DNA of 64,000 bases from Escherichia phage HK3. This document shows positions 6,238 through 63,593 of the stretch, one piece after another. The position numbers and the translations under genes were made by a program. The stretch lies in sequence record PP526765. One strand, written 5' to 3'. The notes below the pieces were generated by a model. That model was given only the letters and a program-made list of their open reading frames with translations, was not told the DNA's origin and searched no databases. Numbering within the stretch: position 1 is the first letter of the stretch; the number at the start of each line of letters is the position of its first letter.

Positions 6238-6315
6238 GGCAGACCTACAGCTTTAAGTAAGATGGTACAGTAATCCATACAACAAGTCAAGAACTATTGC
6301 AAGTTAAAAAAGTTG

Positions 6316-6344
6316 TTGACAAAGTACTTGACAAGGTGTAGGCT
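6316..6344 (+). promoter_or_regulatory. candidate promoter with conserved spacer motif (TTGACA-17-TAGGCT)
   Basis: TTGACA 6316-6321; 17-nt spacer AAGTACTTGACAAGGTG contains 13-mer ACTTGACAAGGTG also found at 48275 and 63533. Confidence 0.45.
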
Positions 6345-6465
6345 TATAAATACTTAGAAGATAACTTAAAAGGTTCCTCTAAAAAGGCTATTTAAACAGA
6401 TATCTTTCTGGATATCTATCTTTTATCTTAAAAGCCTTTTAAGAGGTCTTATAAGAGGCATACCA

Positions 6466-6837
6466 ATGAAAAACAGAACAAACAAAGGCCAGTTTAAAAA
6501 AGGCCAGTCTGGAAACCCATCTGGAAGACCAAAAGGCTCTCGTAACAAAAGCTCACTTGTAAAAGCTCAACTGACCATTGATAATTCTGCTGAGTTCGCT
6601 GCAAAGCTGTTTGAGGCGATTGTTACAAGGGACGCGGCTAAGCTTGCAGAGTTCGGTTTGACGACTGACGATGTAAACCTGAAGTCAATGATGGAAGCTG
6701 GTAAAACTATCATGACCCACTCAGCAGGTGAGATGAAAGCCATTGCAGCAGACACTAAGAAGACTCCTGATAATGGTGGTCAACAACAGACAGATAACAA
6801 ACCAACGTTCTCTGCTGTAGCGACTCTCAAAAAATAA
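6466..6837 (+). CDS. hypothetical protein with GNPxGRPKG motif
   Basis: 123 aa; N-terminal GNPSGRPKGSRN motif I recall from a phage/plasmid family of unknown function. Confidence 0.5.
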   Translation: MKNRTNKGQFKKGQSGNPSGRPKGSRNKSSLVKAQLTIDNSAEFAAKLFEAIVTRDAAKLAEFGLTTDDVNLKSMMEAGKTIMTHSAGEMKAIAADTKKTPDNGGQQQTDNKPTFSAVATLKK

Positions 6838-6849
6838 TTTTAAAAGGTG

Positions 6850-6879
6850 TTGACAGACTCTACAAAGTTGCTCTAAAGT
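6850..6879 (+). promoter_or_regulatory. sigma70-like promoter (TTGACA-18-TAAAGT) inside inverted repeat
   Basis: TTGACA 6850-6855, TAAAGT 6874-6879; inverted repeat GACAGACT (6852-6859) / AGTCTGTC (6877-6884). Confidence 0.5.
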
Positions 6880-8332: not shown

Positions 8333-8350
8333 AAAGTTTTAAAAAGGGTA

Positions 8351-8379
8351 TTGACAATGTGTTTGATACCCTTTAATAT
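8351..8379 (+). promoter_or_regulatory. sigma70-like promoter (TTGACA-17-TAATAT) for tRNA array
   Basis: consensus -35 and near-consensus -10 with 17-nt spacer; flanked by inverted repeat AAGGGTAT / ATACCCTT. Confidence 0.65.
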
Positions 8380-11219: not shown

Positions 11220-11294
11220 ACTCGCTTAGTTTATATGGTAAAACACCACCCTTACAAGATGAAGAAAAAGGTTCAAGTCCTTTAGTGAGTACCA
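11220..11294 (+). tRNA. tRNA-like gene, possible tRNA-Val (anticodon UAC); weak anticodon stem
   Basis: acceptor ACTCGCT/AGTGAGT, D-arm GTTT-ATATGGTA-AAAC, T-arm AAAGG-TTCAAGT-CCTTT, CCA; anticodon stem only 3/5 paired. Confidence 0.4.
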
Positions 11295-11295
11295 T

Positions 11296-11373
11296 GTTCC
11301 AATATCCCAATTGGCAGAGGATGCAAGCTCAAACCTTGTACTAGTGACGGTTCGAATCCGTCTTGGAACACCA
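11296..11373 (+). tRNA. tRNA with anticodon CAA (Leu by code) but short variable arm
   Basis: manual fold: acceptor GTTCCAA/TTGGAAC, Leu-like D-loop AATTGGCAGAG, anticodon stem GCAAG/CTTGT loop CTCAAAC, 6-nt variable loop, T-arm GACGG-TTCGAAT-CCGTC, A73, CCA. Confidence 0.55.
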
Positions 11374-11487
11374 ATTTTGGGAGAGCACTATGAGTGATAA
11401 GTCAATAGCAAAAAAGTTTAGAGCGTCATACCTAAACAGACGTAAAAACAAAGATTGTGAAAAACTGTATGGTGTTCTTGTAGGTAA

Positions 11488-21218: not shown

Positions 21219-21700
21219 TGGTTAAAAGGGTTATTCACCCCGCTAGAGCAAAATTAGTCGGGGCTATGAAGAACTTGCAAACGGCTAATGCTCAAGTTGG
21301 GTATTTTCAAGAACAAGGTCAACATAGCTCTGGTTTTTCTTATCCTGCTTTAATGTATTTACAAGAAGTTATTGGGGTTCCTTCAGCTTCTGGTAAAGTA
21401 TATCGTAGGTTGTTTGAAATCACTATGATGCTAAACAAACAGACCTTGTTAGAGCAGACTAAGAAGAATCTATATAAGCAACTTAGCAGTCTCAATACAG
21501 ACCCTTCAAATACCTTAGAAGCATTTGCAAAGAATGCTCAGAAGGCAATTAAAAGAGGTTTTGGTAATTCTGCTATCCTCCCTCCTAACGCACCTTCCAC
21601 AGTTAAGAAAAAAGGCTTTAATGCACCTCTTGTTGAGACAGGTGACTTAAGGGAGAACCTTGCTTATAAAATTTCTACTAAGAAGGGTATTAAAAAATGA
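21218..21700 (+). CDS. hypothetical head/neck protein
   Basis: 160-aa ORF, ATGA overlap. Confidence 0.4.
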   Translation: MVKRVIHPARAKLVGAMKNLQTANAQVGYFQEQGQHSSGFSYPALMYLQEVIGVPSASGKVYRRLFEITMMLNKQTLLEQTKKNLYKQLSSLNTDPSNTLEAFAKNAQKAIKRGFGNSAILPPNAPSTVKKKGFNAPLVETGDLRENLAYKISTKKGIKK

Positions 21701-24499: not shown

Positions 24500-24531
24500 G
24501 GGGGAGACTTTAAAAGGTCTTCCCCTTTTTT
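24500..24531 (+). terminator. rho-independent terminator after sheath/tube genes
   Basis: GGGGGAGAC-TTTAAAAG-GTCTTCCCC followed by TTTTTT. Confidence 0.7.
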
Positions 24532-40249: not shown

Positions 40250-40579
40250 TTAATCTGCCAACCTTAAATTAAAATTAACACCAAATTTTTCGCATACTTC
40301 CAACATAAACTCAAGAGAGACATTACCAGTGAGATTGATTATGTTGGATACACGAGCCTGAGAGATACCACAAATTTTAGCAACTTGCTCTTGAGAAAGA
40401 CCTCTGGATTTAATCTCTCTCTTAAAACGATGTGCAACGAAGTCTCTCATTTCGTCTACATCCATTGGACAAATATAACTCTCCATTTCAGCCTCTCTGT
40501 CAGCCTCCCAATCATCTTGTGGAGCATAAGGGTCAAAAACCTCATTCATCTTTCTTCTTCCGTTTGCGTGAAGTGTCAA
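40250..40579 (-). CDS. HTH (XRE-type) transcriptional regulator
   Basis: GLSQEQVAKICGISQARVSNI helix-turn-helix signature in C-terminal half. Confidence 0.6.
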   Translation of the reverse strand: MTLHANGRRKMNEVFDPYAPQDDWEADREAEMESYICPMDVDEMRDFVAHRFKREIKSRGLSQEQVAKICGISQARVSNIINLTGNVSLEFMLEVCEKFGVNFNLRLAD

Positions 40580-41261: not shown

Positions 41262-41785
41262 TTCCATACCAAACCCTACCTTACCACACCATACCATACC
41301 AAACCCGACCAAACCCGACCGAGCATCGCTTAAAAATCCTCTTAGAAGACTCTTAAGTGATGTAATCGAATTTTAATGTAGCTCCGATTAACTACCCATA
41401 CCTCACCTTACTTAACCGTACCGCACAGAACCACACCAAACCTAACACCACTTCTCATCACCTTATTAAAAACCATGTTTAAAGACCTTTTAAAAAGATG
41501 AGTCTCATTTTAATGTAGATGAGACTAACTACCCACACCAGACCTAGCCTTGCCTTACCATACCGAACAATACATCACAATACATCACTTAAAAATCCTC
41601 TTAGAAGACTCTTAAGTGATGTAATCGAATTTTAATGTAGCTCCGATTAACTACCCATACCAGACCGCACCAGACAAAACCACGCCAAACCGCACCTTAC
41701 CCAACCTTACCACACCAGACCCAACCTTATTAAAAGACCATGTTTAAAGACCTTTTAAAAAGGAGCCTCCGAAGAGGCTACCTAG
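41262..41785. repeat. tandem about 260-bp repeat units (x2) with identical 74-bp cores and strand-biased CA-rich tracts
   Basis: exact 74-bp direct repeat at 41329-41402 and 41588-41661; second conserved element CCTTATTAAAA..CATGTTTAAAGACCTTTTAAAAAG at 41461-41497 and 41725-41762; tracts almost devoid of G/T. Confidence 0.8.
41756..41779 (-). terminator. rho-independent terminator downstream of 41791..42231 gene
   Basis: minus-strand hairpin AGCCTC-TTCG-GAGGCT followed by TTTTT. Confidence 0.6.
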
Positions 41786-44421: not shown

Positions 44422-44640
44422 TTAAAATGATAAGTCAATGCTAATACGTTCACCCTTAAGGACTCCTGTGCGGTCTCTTGCAATCTTACCGTCAACGATA
44501 ATGATATGCGCAGACATTAAGGAGTCACGATTAAAACCTTTTACGAGCTTACTAGGCATTACTACAATAAGCATCTCCTGAATCAACTCTGGAGTATAGC
44601 AATTGTCGTGAAGTTGCTGAATAACGTCTGAAAGTGTCAT
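44422..44640 (-). CDS. hypothetical protein
   Basis: 72-aa ORF. Confidence 0.4.
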   Translation of the reverse strand: MTLSDVIQQLHDNCYTPELIQEMLIVVMPSKLVKGFNRDSLMSAHIIIVDGKIARDRTGVLKGERISIDLSF

Positions 44641-44701
44641 ATGACCTCCTATACAAGATATAGTATAAGGTACTCTTCCATGAGCACCTTGTCAATACTA
44701 A

Positions 44702-45265
44702 TCAGTGTACTTCAAGCCAATTTTTACCAACTTTACCAGTACCAGTTACAAGCGTTTCCTCCTTAAGCCCTAAATTTCTTGACGCTTGACCATACATCCA
44801 GTCAATTACTGCTTTAACATCCTGCGTCATGTCTTCTGGGCACTCCCAACTATTCTCATCGTGATATGCTAAAAGCAATCTAGCGCCAATAGCTGGTTTT
44901 CGACCATTCAACTTTGTAAGACCCTCTTCACAAGTTCTTCTACAAGCAAGGTTGATGGCTTCATTCTGAACCTGACTTTCAGAACCCATAAGCAAATAAT
45001 TCAATAACTTATGTGGAGATTTACACCACAACCAAGCTCCAGCAACCTTTACAAAACCCCCTTTAGAGATTGCGGCAGTCTTACCAAATACCTCTTCAAG
45101 AGCCTTCTTAGTGGCTTTGAAGTCTGCTTCTAAATTATCCAGCAGCTTCTTAATTTTAGGGAGACGTACAAAGTATGTTTGCTTAGTTAAAGCACCTTCC
45201 TCAGTTGTAGATGCTTTAATCGTCTTAGCAAATTTCTCATCGCCAGCCCCGAACAATACATCTGG
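44702..45265 (-). CDS. DNA polymerase family A, C-terminal segment (motif B end + motif C)
   Basis: LFGAGDEKFAKT matches T7 Pol LYGAGDEK; LLAYHDENSWECPED carries motif C HDE; no ATG in frame (track start is TTG), frame open back to 45265. Confidence 0.7.
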   Translation of the reverse strand, partial: PDVLFGAGDEKFAKTIKASTTEEGALTKQTYFVRLPKIKKLLDNLEADFKATKKALEEVFGKTAAISKGGFVKVAGAWLWCKSPHKLLNYLLMGSESQVQNEAINLACRRTCEEGLTKLNGRKPAIGARLLLAYHDENSWECPEDMTQDVKAVIDWMYGQASRNLGLKEETLVTGTGKVGKNWLEVH

Positions 45266-46064
45266 TCAATACACTCGCAAGGTGTACCAGTTCTCTTATG
45301 AACTTCTCCGCATTTCTACGGAGTGTCGGACTATATCACGTAGCAGTGATGCTACCGTTGCACTTGGGGATGGTCATTAGCTTACCACCCTACTCTACTC
45401 AGTTCATACGTTAAGTATGCTTTTCGATAGTCTCTGAACGTTTCTCTGTTAGGAATCTCTATAGTTATATCATTTGCTTAGATAGTCAATTGCTCTTTGC
45501 ATGTTATCAACACTATCTGCAAGCAACCCCAAAGCTCTGTTGCAATTGTGGCATAACATACCTCTTACCTTTCCGGTTTTATGGTCATGGTCAACAACAA
45601 GTTTAGCCTTGTGTCGTGAACCATTCATGATAAAACCTTCACCGCCACAAATTTGACATTTGTAATCACAGTCACGGAGTAGAGCCTCAACCTCTTCTCT
45701 TTCCAATCCATATGTTCTTAGGTAGTAATTCTTAACTCTACCTTTCTCACCGCAATGTGACGAACAATAAACTTGCCTTGCTGTTCTCGGCATGAACACC
45801 TTCTCACAACTAGGGCATTTCTTAGTAAGAACCCTGTGTTCTGCCCTTCTGTCAAACTTTAATACACAACTTCTGCACCGTTTCTGATTGTATTGATATG
45901 GTTTAAACTCCGTACCACACTCAGTGCATAATCTCTCTTCGTAACCTGCCATTGTCTCTCTCCTTTGTTTTAGGAGTCCTAACAGAGACTTCGCTGCTGA
46001 TTACCATATCTTTACAGACTTAGGCTTCCAGCAATTCACAACGTTTTACATGCGCCACTGACGC
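45266..46064 (-). mobile_element. intervening sequence in DNA polymerase gene carrying HNH endonuclease (candidate group I intron / homing element)
   Basis: about 800 bp separating pol motif B halves; upstream and downstream pol segments in different frames; contains free-standing HNH ORF with its own AAGGAG RBS. Confidence 0.55.
45470..45952 (-). CDS. HNH homing endonuclease
   Basis: VVDHDHKTGKVRGMLCHNCNRALG HNH motif; N-terminal CxxC zinc fingers; 160 aa. Confidence 0.8.
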   Translation of the reverse strand: MAGYEERLCTECGTEFKPYQYNQKRCRSCVLKFDRRAEHRVLTKKCPSCEKVFMPRTARQVYCSSHCGEKGRVKNYYLRTYGLEREEVEALLRDCDYKCQICGGEGFIMNGSRHKAKLVVDHDHKTGKVRGMLCHNCNRALGLLADSVDNMQRAIDYLSK

Positions 46065-48203
46065 ATAGATGCCATTTTTGGCTTTCTTACGACCTTTACT
46101 AATTTCTTGAAGAAGACTTGTATCCTGAGTAGCTCGACATGTCAAGATGTCTTCCTCTTTATTAAGACTGAAGTAGATACTATTCAAAGTGTGTGCATCA
46201 GTCCCTGAGTACACCACGTATAAGTCATTTTCAGAATCATAATGTAAATACTTGTCAATAGCTGGGTTTAGATACTGGTCAAAATGTTTGCAATAGTATC
46301 TACCATCCTCTTGTTTGACAAATTCAACCTCTTCTTTACCCTCTGTCACCGCTTTAGTGAAATCTTTATCGCCCATAAAGTTACACAGTAGCACAAGTTG
46401 GGCGCTATTCATGTCGGCTGAAACAATATTAGTACCTTCTTCACAAGTCCAAACTTCCCTCATAGGTGCTCCATAGACAGCAGCACCAGACGGTACGTTT
46501 ACAATACCATATTGTGTCATACGTCCAGTTGAAGTACCAAATACCATTGCACCAGCACTAAGGCGACCATCAGGACGAATCTGGTTCAACCAACCTTTTT
46601 CATCATCCTTTGAGTTCTCAATAGTTCTGCGTCGGTGCATCAAAGTATAGTACTTAGCAATCTTCTGTCCAAGCTCACCTTCAATCGTATCATAAGATGA
46701 TTCAGTAAGTTTTGGTGAAGTACGGATTAAGCAAGGCTCAAGCAAATCTGTGTACTTCTTCACAGACCAGTTATGTTCAATGTACTGGACACCTTCATGT
46801 TCAACATAACTCAAACCACACCGTTCCACCATCTCATCCCACTTAGGATGTTTTGTAATCATCTTTTTGTTGTCTTTGAAACGACAAACCTTCACAGGAC
46901 GACCATCTGAGTCTTTCTTGTAGTTCCAGTCATCTGGAATCCAACCAACTGATTTCAAGTAGTCTTTAACAACTGCTACCTGAGTCATACGAGAAACTTC
47001 GAACTCAATTGGTGTATATGGTGCATCAATCAAACCTGTGTAGCGACTTGACTCAAGTTCAAAGTGGTTAACAACATGGCTGTTATAGTACTTCACAGTT
47101 TTAACTGTTTTTACTGGCTTCCAGTCTTTGCACTTCTTACCAATCTTTGCATTCAACTCATTGCAAATTGCACGAGCATCCTTCATTGCTACAAAACCTT
47201 CCTTGTACTCTTCACCAGTTACAGAGTTAGTTGGTGTATAGCAATTTCTCTTTTCAATGTTAAAAATCTTTGTAGTTGGCTTACCAAATGGCTTGATTTC
47301 ATATGTCTGCATCTCACCGTTACGTACCTGCTGACGATACTTTGTCTTAGGGTACTTGGTAATCCTCTTCAGTCCATCTGCATGACCAAATGTTTCAACA
47401 TACTCATTCCAAGCCTTTGCAAACTCTTCTCCAGTAACTTTACCTTTGGTTTTAATAGTTGGAGGAAGATGTGGTTCAACTTCTGAAGCAAGCTCATTAG
47501 TCAACTTGTCAAGTTCCTTTACATGAAACTCCATAAGCTCTTTATCAGCTTTCCAACCATTGATAGCCTGTTGACTCATCCAGAAAGATGTTTCTTTAGC
47601 TCGCATGTAGGTTTCATAGGTGTCTACGCCACACTTCTTTAGCTTCAGATATTCATTATCCAATGCACGTTTAGTTTTGGCGTTGATGCGGATATCTTCT
47701 ACAACACGAGTGAAGATTTCTGCATTCCACACACCCCAATGTTCAATCTCTGGTTTACGGACACCAACACGAGCACCCCATGCTGCCAAGCCATGAGCAC
47801 CTTTATAGCCTTTTGGAGTTGGTCTATCCATCCATTGAACACGAGACTGGATAAGAGAATCCTGAAAGAAATTACTCCACGGCTTACACTTTGGATTATC
47901 AAAGTTCCACAAATCTGGTGCAATGTGATTGAAAACCCACCAGTCATACCCCAGACCATTATGGATGCAAAGTCGTTTTGCCTTTAACGCAAATTCAACA
48001 CCTTCACGTAAGCCGCCCTTGATGTACTTGGTATACTTGTGACCGAGGATAGGCTCATCTGTAAAGACCCATACAGGTGGCTCTTCATCGTCAGATTTAT
48101 AGTCTGCGAAAGCCATTACGTGTACTTTAGTGAACTCAAGGAGTAAACCATCAGTTTCTGTATCACCAACCAAATGTAAGTTTTTAAAATCTACGTTTTC
48201 CAT
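46020..48203 (-). CDS. DNA polymerase family A, N-terminal segment (3'-5' exonuclease + palm through motif B start)
   Basis: Exo I VGDTETDGL; motif A-like SADMNSAQLVLL; RKKAKNGIY beginning of motif B, then frame runs into stop. Confidence 0.85.
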   Translation of the reverse strand: MENVDFKNLHLVGDTETDGLLLEFTKVHVMAFADYKSDDEEPPVWVFTDEPILGHKYTKYIKGGLREGVEFALKAKRLCIHNGLGYDWWVFNHIAPDLWNFDNPKCKPWSNFFQDSLIQSRVQWMDRPTPKGYKGAHGLAAWGARVGVRKPEIEHWGVWNAEIFTRVVEDIRINAKTKRALDNEYLKLKKCGVDTYETYMRAKETSFWMSQQAINGWKADKELMEFHVKELDKLTNELASEVEPHLPPTIKTKGKVTGEEFAKAWNEYVETFGHADGLKRITKYPKTKYRQQVRNGEMQTYEIKPFGKPTTKIFNIEKRNCYTPTNSVTGEEYKEGFVAMKDARAICNELNAKIGKKCKDWKPVKTVKTVKYYNSHVVNHFELESSRYTGLIDAPYTPIEFEVSRMTQVAVVKDYLKSVGWIPDDWNYKKDSDGRPVKVCRFKDNKKMITKHPKWDEMVERCGLSYVEHEGVQYIEHNWSVKKYTDLLEPCLIRTSPKLTESSYDTIEGELGQKIAKYYTLMHRRRTIENSKDDEKGWLNQIRPDGRLSAGAMVFGTSTGRMTQYGIVNVPSGAAVYGAPMREVWTCEEGTNIVSADMNSAQLVLLCNFMGDKDFTKAVTEGKEEVEFVKQEDGRYYCKHFDQYLNPAIDKYLHYDSENDLYVVYSGTDAHTLNSIYFSLNKEEDILTCRATQDTSLLQEISKGRKKAKNGIYASVAHVKRCELLEA

Positions 48204-48264
48204 TTTTTACTCCCTCTAAAACCATTAACCTCATACATTACTGCAAAAAATTATAAAAAGCAAG

Positions 48265-48293
48265 TTGACAATGCACTTGACAAGGTGTTAATC
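48265..48293 (+). promoter_or_regulatory. candidate promoter with conserved spacer motif
   Basis: TTGACA 48265-48270 + spacer ATGCACTTGACAAGGTG (13-mer ACTTGACAAGGTG at 48275-48287) + TTAATC. Confidence 0.4.
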
Positions 48294-48376
48294 TTTGCGA
48301 AGTGGGTTTTTACTTAAAAGGTTACTTAACAGTTTAACTATACAGATACTTTAAAACTCTTAAAAGATTATTTAAT

Positions 48377-48417
48377 AGCTTTTAAAAAGCTTTAAAGTAT
48401 AACGTATAGAATACGTT
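48377..48417. promoter_or_regulatory. pair of palindromes (operator-like) in divergent intergenic region
   Basis: AGCTTTT-A-AAAAGCT (48377-48391) and AACGTAT-AGA-ATACGTT (48401-48417). Confidence 0.4.
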
Positions 48418-48461
48418 AAGATAAAAGATTAAAACTTAATAGTTACTTAAAAGAGGCTTAC

Positions 48462-63532: not shown

Positions 63533-63578
63533 ACTTGACAAGGTGATGTGGGTCTTGATAGGCTTACATCACCTTTTT
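63533..63578 (+). terminator. terminator hairpin after nrdD overlapping conserved 13-mer
   Basis: ACTTGACAAGGTG at 63533-63545; hairpin GGTGATGT (63542-63549) / ACATCACC (63566-63573) followed by TTTTT. Confidence 0.55.
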
Positions 63579-63593
63579 ATTTGGAGTTGCATC

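Follow-up and report, generated by a model that had tools for sequence, protein, structure and literature searches.

The DNA analysed in the current study is a 64,000-nucleotide (nt) stretch of Escherichia phage HK3 (PP526765), hereafter the window, which belongs to the genus Felixounavirus (Felix O1-like myoviruses) and follows the gene order of Felix O1. It carries 25 tRNA genes, the structural block, a T7-like replication set (DNA polymerase A, primase/helicase and exonuclease) and the genes nrdA, nrdB and nrdD. The element under study is a 13-mer, ACTTGACAAGGTG, made up of the hexamer TTGACA with two bases on its 5' side and five on its 3' side. A previous sequence-only reading of the window had reported this 13-mer on the plus strand at 6326-6338, 48275-48287 and 63533-63545, and an exact search recovers all three copies; the genes downstream begin with ATG codons at 6466, 48462 and 63594, as had been given. 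The actual number of sites is four, as a listing of every TTGACA in the window revealed a further copy of the 11-bp core TTGACAAGGTG on the minus strand at 44695-44685, situated 45 nt upstream of a gene starting at 44640 (-). All four sites (sites 1, 2 and 3 in the order of the three 13-mers, site 4 being the minus-strand copy) are intergenic and lie on the same strand as the gene downstream, and the perfect TTGACA boxes which they contain begin at 6316, 6328, 48265, 48277, 63535 and 44695 (-). That these sites form a family of promoters with a weak -10 box is well supported by the evidence presented below.

On the basis of base composition, approximately 0.002 occurrences of ACTTGACAAGGTG are expected in the 128 kb of two-strand sequence, while 30 first-order Markov simulations yielded a mean of 0.33 13-mers per simulated window that reached at least three copies. 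In the real window the 13-mer families with at least three copies are tRNA arms, AAAGTTGTTGACA, AAGACCTTTTAAA, a 25-nt leader repeat and ACTTGACAAGGTG itself. The motif is a real and non-random feature. TTGACAAGGTG was encountered in no phage paper of the literature searched, and to our knowledge the binding sites of CRP, FNR, LexA, DnaA and NrdR, PhoB/OmpR-type repeats and the marbox do not match it; an Rfam scan of the whole window returned tRNAs only, with no covariance-model match at the sites or their leaders. The TTGACAAGGTG signature is undescribed, yet the element belongs to known kinds, of which it is a variant, and amounts to a modest regulatory detail. With regard to the other repeated families, AAGACCTTTTAAA is located at 41482 and 41747 and, on the other strand, at 24509; AAAGTTGTTGACA (6309 and 9820 on the plus strand, 43096 on the minus strand) forms the junction of A-tract and -35 box of three promoters, including that of the upstream box of site 1; and the 25-nt repeat, CCTCTTAGAAGACTCTTAAGTGATG, occurs at 41338, 41597 and 43019 in a gene-poor region of approximately 41.1-43.1 kb, its minus-strand reading (...ACTTAAGAGTCTTCTAAGAGG) resembling the leader and ribosome-binding sequences of sites 1 and 2.

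The 2-kb stretch around the motif matches 252 phage records at 80-99% identity (best 98.6%), which come from Felixounavirus and its close relatives with Escherichia, Salmonella, Shigella and Citrobacter as hosts. Conservation of site 1 was assessed in 28 related loci and synteny of the motif in 145 fetched loci, with Felix O1 (Felixounavirus), SUSP2 (Suspvirus) and Maleficent (Mooglevirus) serving as cross-genus references, and with Pectobacterium phage Wc4-1 and Erwinia phage phiEa104, more distant Ounavirinae with a polymerase identity of 57-63%, as outgroups. Presence in related genomes had been proposed as a check on the motif, and it is indeed found there: the sites are retained at syntenic positions in Felixounavirus, Suspvirus and Mooglevirus, and the 11-mer is present in 89 of the 145 fetched loci, those loci that span a single site carrying one copy in the expected place and on the expected strand. 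The longer loci of Felix O1, SUSP2 and Maleficent carry one TTGACAAGGTG copy each at sites 2, 3 and 4, while the counterparts of site 1 read TTGACAAGGTA in Felix O1 and TTGACAAGCTG in SUSP2. Where relatives carry an additional gene, inserted downstream of nrdD or ahead of the site 4 gene, the motif travels with its cassette. The features of the four sites are compiled in Table 1.

Table 1. Positions of the motif copies, candidate promoter elements and associated features in the window
Feature	Position	Strand	Remarks
Site 1, upstream -35 (TTGACA#1)	6316..6321	+	After UP-like A-tract AAAAAAGTTG; invariant in 28 related loci
Site 1, 13-mer	6326..6338	+	TTGACA#2 at 6328-6333, within 17-nt spacer
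Site 1, candidate -10 TAGGCT	6339..6344	+	17 nt from TTGACA#1
Site 1, leader of gene 6466	6351..6465	+	AT-rich, nearly invariant in relatives; two CTTAAAAG and a long hairpin
Leftward promoter candidate TTGACT-N17-TACCAT	6262..6290	-	Back-to-back with site 1; from consensus scan; invariant region
Site 2, upstream -35 (TTGACA#1)	48265..48270	+	After AAAAAATTATAAAAAGCAAG; homologous to the single TTGACA of the outgroups
Site 2, 13-mer	48275..48287	+	TTGACA#2 at 48277-48282, in spacer
Site 2, candidate extended -10 TGT-TAATCT	48286..48294	+	18 nt from TTGACA#1; TGG-TAGTCT in Maleficent
Site 2, leader of gene 48462	48301..48461	+	Approximately 160 nt, 18-22% GC; three CTTAAAAG; kept across genera
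Leftward DNA polymerase promoter candidate TTGCTT-N17-TAATGT	48235..48263	-	Abuts TTGACA#1; read from the sequence
Site 3, 13-mer	63533..63545	+	TTGACA (63535-63540) is the putative -35 for gene 63594
Site 3, intrinsic terminator after nrdD	63540..63583	+	16-bp hairpin (63540-63575) followed by TTTTATTT
Site 3, candidate -10 TAGGCT	63559..63564	+	18 nt from -35, in 3' arm of hairpin; invariant in relatives
Site 4, 11-mer TTGACAAGGTG	44685..44695	-	Putative -35 of the promoter for gene 44640 (-)
Site 4, candidate -10 TACCTT	44667..44672	-	17 nt from -35; TACCAT in one relative
Candidate regulator, putative Cro/CI-type helix-turn-helix protein	40250..40579	-	HTH_3 (5e-11), phrog_1373; probable start M11 at 40549 (99 amino acids)

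Sites 1 and 2 lie in the two divergent intergenic regions of the phage, which are the gene 40/41 and 96/97 regions of Felix O1. Site 1 is laid out as AAAAAAGTTG-TTGACA-AAGTAC-TTGACAAGGTG-TAGGCT, or equally TTGACA-AAGTACTTGACAAGGTG-TAGGCT, and site 2 as AAAAAGCAAG-TTGACA-ATGCAC-TTGACAAGGTG-T-TAATCT, for which the earlier register was TTGACA-ATGCACTTGACAAGGTG-TTAATC. A second TTGACA within the spacer, as had been noted previously, is thus seen at both sites, its position being 12 bp downstream of the outer one.

All four sites display T-12, A-11 and T-7 at a distance of 16-18 nt, as anticipated for the -10 position of a sigma-70 promoter, the boxes of sites 1 to 4 being TAGGCT (17 nt), TAATCT (18 nt, with TG), TAGGCT (18 nt) and TACCTT (17 nt). 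The sequence-only reading had called the -10 boxes poor; they are weak, agreeing with TATAAT at three of six positions, although site 2 is better read as TAATCT than as TTAATC. Its proposal of a distinct promoter-like class gains support from this shared weakness, at least as a promoter-associated subclass. Among 11 intergenic promoters with a perfect TTGACA and a TAnnnT, the four motif sites score 3/6 against TATAAT and the other seven 4-5/6, so that the motif sites are exactly the weak -10 class; approximately one in 330 arrangements would produce this by chance, a figure that depends on a list involving judgement (intergenic TTGACA with at most one mismatch and TAnnnT at 16-18 nt, site 3 having been added by eye). 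Promoters with a strong -10 box are located at 6850, 8351, 8442, 9827 and 43101 (-).

Conservation at site 1 adds to this picture. The intergenic region 6238-6465 is more conserved than the flanking genes in the related loci, and in divergent relatives both TTGACA boxes, a TG and the TA...T of the -10 are invariant, the inner box as TTGACAA, while the six bases between the boxes all vary and motif positions 8-9 read GG, CG, GA or GC. The -10 becomes TAGCCT, TAAGTT or TAGTGT, with TAnnnT kept and the inner bases being GGC, GCC, AGT or GTG. This pattern is the footprint expected of a sigma-70 promoter together with a selected second TTGACA. Retention of functional positions and drift of the spacer are clear at site 1, whereas at sites 2 and 4, where the spacer too is conserved, the comparison says little; at site 2, Felix O1, SUSP2 and Maleficent share an unchanged 11-mer next to spacer bases that differ. 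The leftward TAATGT beside site 2 is kept in SUSP2 and reads TAGGGT in Maleficent.

Because of this promoter anatomy and its conservation, the promoters are very probably used by the sigma-70 polymerase of the host, and this enzyme can by itself make do with a weak -10 where a perfect -35 box and an UP-like A-tract are provided, so that the phage factor suggested by the sequence-only reading would be a plausible rather than a necessary component. The outer TTGACA of sites 1 and 2, following the A-tract, would be the working -35, the motif representing a second -35 copy within the spacer of an early-type promoter, and the two promoters would start the rightward transcription units of the divergent regions. 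In the case of sites 3 and 4 the motif would itself supply the -35 through its TTGACA, positioned 18 and 17 nt, respectively, upstream of the weak TAnnnT. The polymerase would bind the perfect -35, aided at sites 1 and 2 by the UP-like A-tracts, and would tolerate a G/C-rich -10, with predicted starts approximately 7 nt beyond the -10, at about 6351, 48301, 63571 and 44660 (-). Two T4-like promoter types were considered and set aside: a MotA-type middle promoter, as no Mot box (TGCTT) is present at -30 at any of the four sites and TTGACA is retained at -35, and a late promoter, as TATAAATA is found in 3 copies where 3.5 are expected, the copy at 6345 overlapping site 1 by chance.

An alternative assignment makes the inner TTGACA the real, or a second, -35 of an overlapping promoter at sites 1 and 2, with starts approximately 10-12 nt apart. 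The annotators of MZ726792 chose this register at site 1, where the inner TTGACA is followed after 15 nt by AATACT (6349-6354), which matches the -10 consensus at four of six positions and resembles the GATACT of strong phage promoters, and where ACTTAG just downstream is conserved. A 15-nt spacer is nevertheless poor, the hexamer becomes AACACT at 16 nt in other genera, and at site 2 the positions 15-18 nt after the inner box offer no -10 (CGAAGT, GAAGTG, AAGTGG, AGTGGG); we therefore regard the overlapping promoter as quite improbable. The same record annotates a site 2 promoter as TTGACA-N16-GTTAAT, a terminator only at site 3 and nothing at site 4, while Whichard et al. (PMC3185647) list P41 (TTGACA-N15-TATAGG) as the sole promoter in the gene 40/41 and 96/97 regions.

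Site 3 had been placed in one class with sites 1 and 2 but differs from them in architecture, as the motif here takes the place of the -35 and overlaps a terminator. With its AAGGTG the motif contributes the base of the 5' arm to a hairpin of -24.9 kcal/mol (z -5.4 versus shuffles), to which no comparably strong hairpin corresponds at sites 1, 2 and 4. Pairing is maintained in 99% of cells in 12 distinct relatives, with two pairs showing compensatory changes, one of them involving the last G of the 13-mer (G-C to A-U), and five pairs altered on one side only that are still paired. The TTGAC outside the stem is invariant, and the bases preceding it differ between genera. Transcripts from upstream would stop at the hairpin and new ones would begin in its 3' arm (approximately 63571); the latter would lack the 5' arm and would therefore escape termination. 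A stem-loop with a U-run and a promoter in the same cassette (TTGACA-N18-TAGGCT overlapping the hairpin) are features of the promoter-early stem-loop (PeSL) cassettes of T4-type phages (PMC2839356, PMC4122927), as is gene gain, loss or replacement at the cassette boundary, which is seen at sites 3 and 4. Among relatives, the gene located next to the site 3 cassette on its downstream side is of at least five different kinds. An HNH gene is inserted before this cassette in relatives L072, L075, L077, L079 and L084, and an extra gene stands directly after the nrdD stop, before the cassette, in L072, L075, L076, L077 and L084. Judged from these sequence features, site 3 appears to be a dual promoter/terminator and a tidy PeSL-like cassette outside the T4-like phages. 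The product of the extra gene begins with MNYELIYNAIIKKAHSERGVP; that it is a homing endonuclease is a guess. Elsewhere in the window a TTGACA lies inside the terminator-like hairpin AAAGGGTATTGACAATGTGTTTGATACCCTTT (8343-8374), the T-run of which passes directly into TAATAT (to 8379); this is one example of further promoter/terminator composites and is listed as terminator t42 in the Felix O1 genome paper (PMC3185647).

At site 4 the conserved block starts exactly at TTGACA, where the upstream gene ends, and the whole spacer is invariant across the three genera. An alternative -10, TATACT at 22 nt, was discarded, its last T being lost in several relatives. The upstream gene is the polymerase C-terminus in this phage and an HNH gene in Felix O1, SUSP2 and Maleficent. 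The DNA polymerase gene (44702-48203, minus strand) is interrupted in the window, with a 727-amino acid N-part (46020-48203) and a 184-amino acid C-part (44702-45256) separated by an Endonuclease_7/HNH-type open reading frame (45470-45952); a below-threshold Rfam match to a group I intron is located at 45943-46033 (24.6 bits, E 7e-4). A group I intron that encodes a homing endonuclease is the probable cause of the interruption, and the gene is uninterrupted in Felix O1.

The outgroups provide information on the origin of the doubled -35. In the polymerase-divergent region, upstream of the gene 97 homologue, Wc4-1 carries TTGACA-N17-TAGGCT and phiEa104 carries TTGACA-N18-TACATT, with no inner TTGACA copy at this promoter in either phage, and TTGACAAGGTG is absent from both whole outgroup genomes. 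The site 1 homologue of Wc4-1 reads TTGACA-GGTGAGCC...-TACCCT. From these promoters with a single -35 it follows that the upstream TTGACA is the ancestral -35 and that the weak TAGGCT-type -10 is old, the inner motif having been added at both divergent promoters in the Felixounavirus/Suspvirus/Mooglevirus clade. In phiEa104 the site 1 homologue (approximately 21300-21370) consists of TTGACA-N16-TAGAAT followed 5 nt later by ACTTGACA, a -35-like box just past the -10 whose placement recalls lambda PR'. Although their polymerases have only about 60% identity to that of the window, both outgroups share GCACAAGGATGTG in the spacer of their site 4 homologue, downstream of the polymerase gene (locus L057, 5185-5215; locus L058, 5175-5210); this sequence might represent a spacer element of earlier origin with a relationship to ACAAGGTG. 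A looser pattern, ACA(A)GG(A)TG, was too frequent in the outgroups to be informative.

The leaders of sites 1 and 2 span 115-160 nt compared to approximately 20 nt at sites 3 and 4, contain five of the ten CTTAAAAG copies of the window, begin with ACTTAAAAGG 12-14 nt past the predicted start, and are far more conserved than the adjacent coding sequence. Their role could lie in RNA-level control, protein binding or DNA unwinding. The last of these relates to the suggestion that sites 1 and 2 are replication origins, each combining a promoter with an unwinding element as in the T7 primary origin and T4 oriF/oriG, in which transcription from the tandem -35 promoter into the AT-rich stretch would prime the T7-like replisome. 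The length, conservation and repeated CTTAAAAG of the leaders are in keeping with this, as are the low GC content of leader 2 and its position between the T7-like DNA polymerase gene and the primase/helicase operon. The leaders, however, fold into long hairpins, one of which has undergone a compensatory change, as would instead be expected if translation were controlled at the RNA level. An origin would also account for the leaders and not for the 13-mer, given that sites 3 and 4 carry the motif with short leaders; origin function is accordingly judged very unlikely. The leader 2 hairpin (AACGTAT-AGA-ATACGTT, 48407-48423) is the one with a compensatory change, to ATGTAT...ATACAT in Maleficent, which hints at structural conservation at the RNA or DNA level.

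The extra conserved bases and the doubled -35 may be explained by an operator overlapping the core promoter, by means of which a phage protein would lower the activity of the promoter set together. A repressor operator is preferred over an activator site because the motif always overlaps the core promoter at a variable distance from the -10, namely 0-1 nt in the tandem promoters of sites 1 and 2 compared with 17-18 nt in those of sites 3 and 4. The set of four promoters heads the operons for replication and nucleotide metabolism as well as the rightward unit that continues into the tRNA and structural genes. The candidate for the operator-binding protein would be the clade-specific helix-turn-helix (HTH) protein encoded at 40250-40579. 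By tblastn it is found in 258 records, all of the Felixounavirus/Suspvirus/Mooglevirus clade, and no homologue was found among Erwinia and Pectobacterium phages. Its recognition helix does not vary between genera in which the protein as a whole is 72-77% identical. A below-threshold match to Sigma70_r4 (sigma-70 region 4) is a hint only, and a PDB search was set aside, as the top match (8VD6) is a de novo designed repeat protein and spurious, the remainder being weak generic XRE matches. For the explanation as a whole, that is, a sigma-70 promoter family, a terminator at site 3 and a preferred operator reading of the motif, we estimate a probability of roughly 0.6, whereas the operator role taken by itself is put forward tentatively, because the tail of the motif varies at sites 1 and 3, the hairpin explains the site 3 tail, and no dyad is present.

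Several observations weigh against this explanation. A dyad of 14-18 bp, as bound by Cro/CI-type proteins, is lacking, the motif containing only CTTGnCAAG, which is kept neither at site 4 nor in the relatives at sites 1 and 3; among candidate palindromes, CTTGnCAAG, ACAnnnTGT and AAGTACTT were all rejected as short and not conserved. The AGGTG tail varies to ACGTG, AGATG, AGCTG and AGGTA at site 1 and to TGGTG, ATGTG and AGGTA at site 3, where its last G covaries with the hairpin partner. Co-occurrence of the motif and the HTH protein amounts effectively to a comparison of one clade with two outgroups. As regards the promoters, the -10 boxes match TATAAT at just three positions, and a simple consensus scan requiring a -10 of at least 4/6 calls none of the four sites. 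No transcription start data were found in the literature for any Felix O1-like phage, and the timing data for Felix O1 derive from gel-based reverse transcription PCR, which places most genes in one class: genes 41, 42 and 97-99 peak at 25 minutes, as do most genes. Gene timing in another report is assigned by homology only (PMC12482277).

The same variation of the tail at sites 1 and 3 is among the arguments for plain sigma-70 promoters that require no dedicated factor, their identity arising from descent and from recombination of short regulatory cassettes as in the PeSL of T4-type phages; the inner TTGACA would then be a tandem duplicate that has been retained and whose effect would not go beyond an adjustment of promoter strength through a second, unproductive docking register. 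Other regulatory sequences are indeed repeated in the window (AAAGTTGTTGACA and the 25-nt leader repeat, three times each) and in Felix O1 (promoter-region repeats of 39 and 57 bp), and the borders of the cassettes coincide with changes in gene content at sites 3 and 4. Tandem boxes without the AGGTG tail are present outside the window as TTGACA-N7-TTGACA in Felix O1 (11269-11460) and as TTGACA-N6-TTGACA in phiEa104 (16494); the leader of the former promoter is approximately 150 nt in length and contains CTTAAAAG. Such an origin fits less well with the invariance of the inner TTGACA at site 1, where its neighbours change freely, with the gain of the inner copy at both divergent promoters in one clade, and with the site 4 spacer, whose complete invariance in three genera is unusual for a spacer that only sets a distance. 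We consider the absence of a dedicated factor a serious possibility and the main rival, about as probable as the operator role, albeit one to which we assign well under even odds.

A more far-reaching proposal, which we consider rather unlikely, is that TTGACAAGGTG is the operator of a temporal switch of the Felix O1/Suspvirus/Mooglevirus phages that acts through the HTH protein, the tandem -35 promoters doubling as transcription-primed origins. If this were true, the HTH protein would bind a -35-like site that coincides with the -35 itself (sites 3 and 4) or is situated in the spacer (sites 1 and 2), and would thereby jointly shut the promoters that serve replication, nucleotide metabolism and the rightward unit leading into the tRNA and structural genes. 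Felix O1 is reported to encode no T4-like polymerase-modifying proteins, and how its transcription is timed or passes its many terminators is not known (Whichard et al., PMC3185647). Felix O1-like phages are widely used in the typing, detection and biocontrol of Salmonella and E. coli, and the clade-specific signature marks four of their promoters, including the rightward ones of the two divergent control regions, and is useful for the annotation of sites 3 and 4. Its interest will be modest until start sites or a binding protein are demonstrated.

The four sites may be compared with several known systems. In common with sigma-70 coliphage promoters, they possess a perfect or near-perfect TTGACA, spacers of 17-18 nt, T-12, A-11 and T-7, and, at sites 1 and 2, A-tracts. 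At lambda PL and PR an operator (OL1 and OR1, respectively) lies within the spacer between -35 and -10, and the conserved block inside the spacer is reminiscent of this arrangement; unlike lambda PL/PR and the coliphage promoters, however, the -10 boxes are G/C-rich (TAGGCT, TACCTT), the spacer block is a second -35, and there is no dyad. Activator sites of the lambda CII type consist of TTGC-N6-TTGC direct repeats around the -35. Sites 1 and 2 likewise carry a short direct repeat with a 6-nt gap over the -35 region, and the phage encodes a small HTH protein, but here the repeat is the -35 consensus with a period of 12 bp, the -35 matches the consensus perfectly where that of CII-type sites is poor, a single copy is present at sites 3 and 4, and the second copy lies between -35 and -10, where an activator could not work. 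With T4 MotA middle promoters the sites share their position as a subclass before replication and nucleotide-metabolism genes and a TAnnnT -10, yet they differ in lacking the Mot box (TGCTT; PMC4122927) at -30 and in retaining a consensus -35. The PeSL cassettes come from a different subfamily than the present phage, a member of the Ounavirinae, and have their promoter next to the hairpin, whereas that of site 3 extends through and around it; the -10 is weak here, a strong hairpin is missing from sites 1, 2 and 4, and recombination at the cassettes is deduced from flank variation only. Nonetheless, site 3 resembles them as a compact intergenic unit of a sigma-70-like promoter and an efficient stem-loop terminator whose flanks vary between close relatives, and even if no factor is involved it would provide a tidy example of a promoter/terminator cassette outside the T4-like phages.

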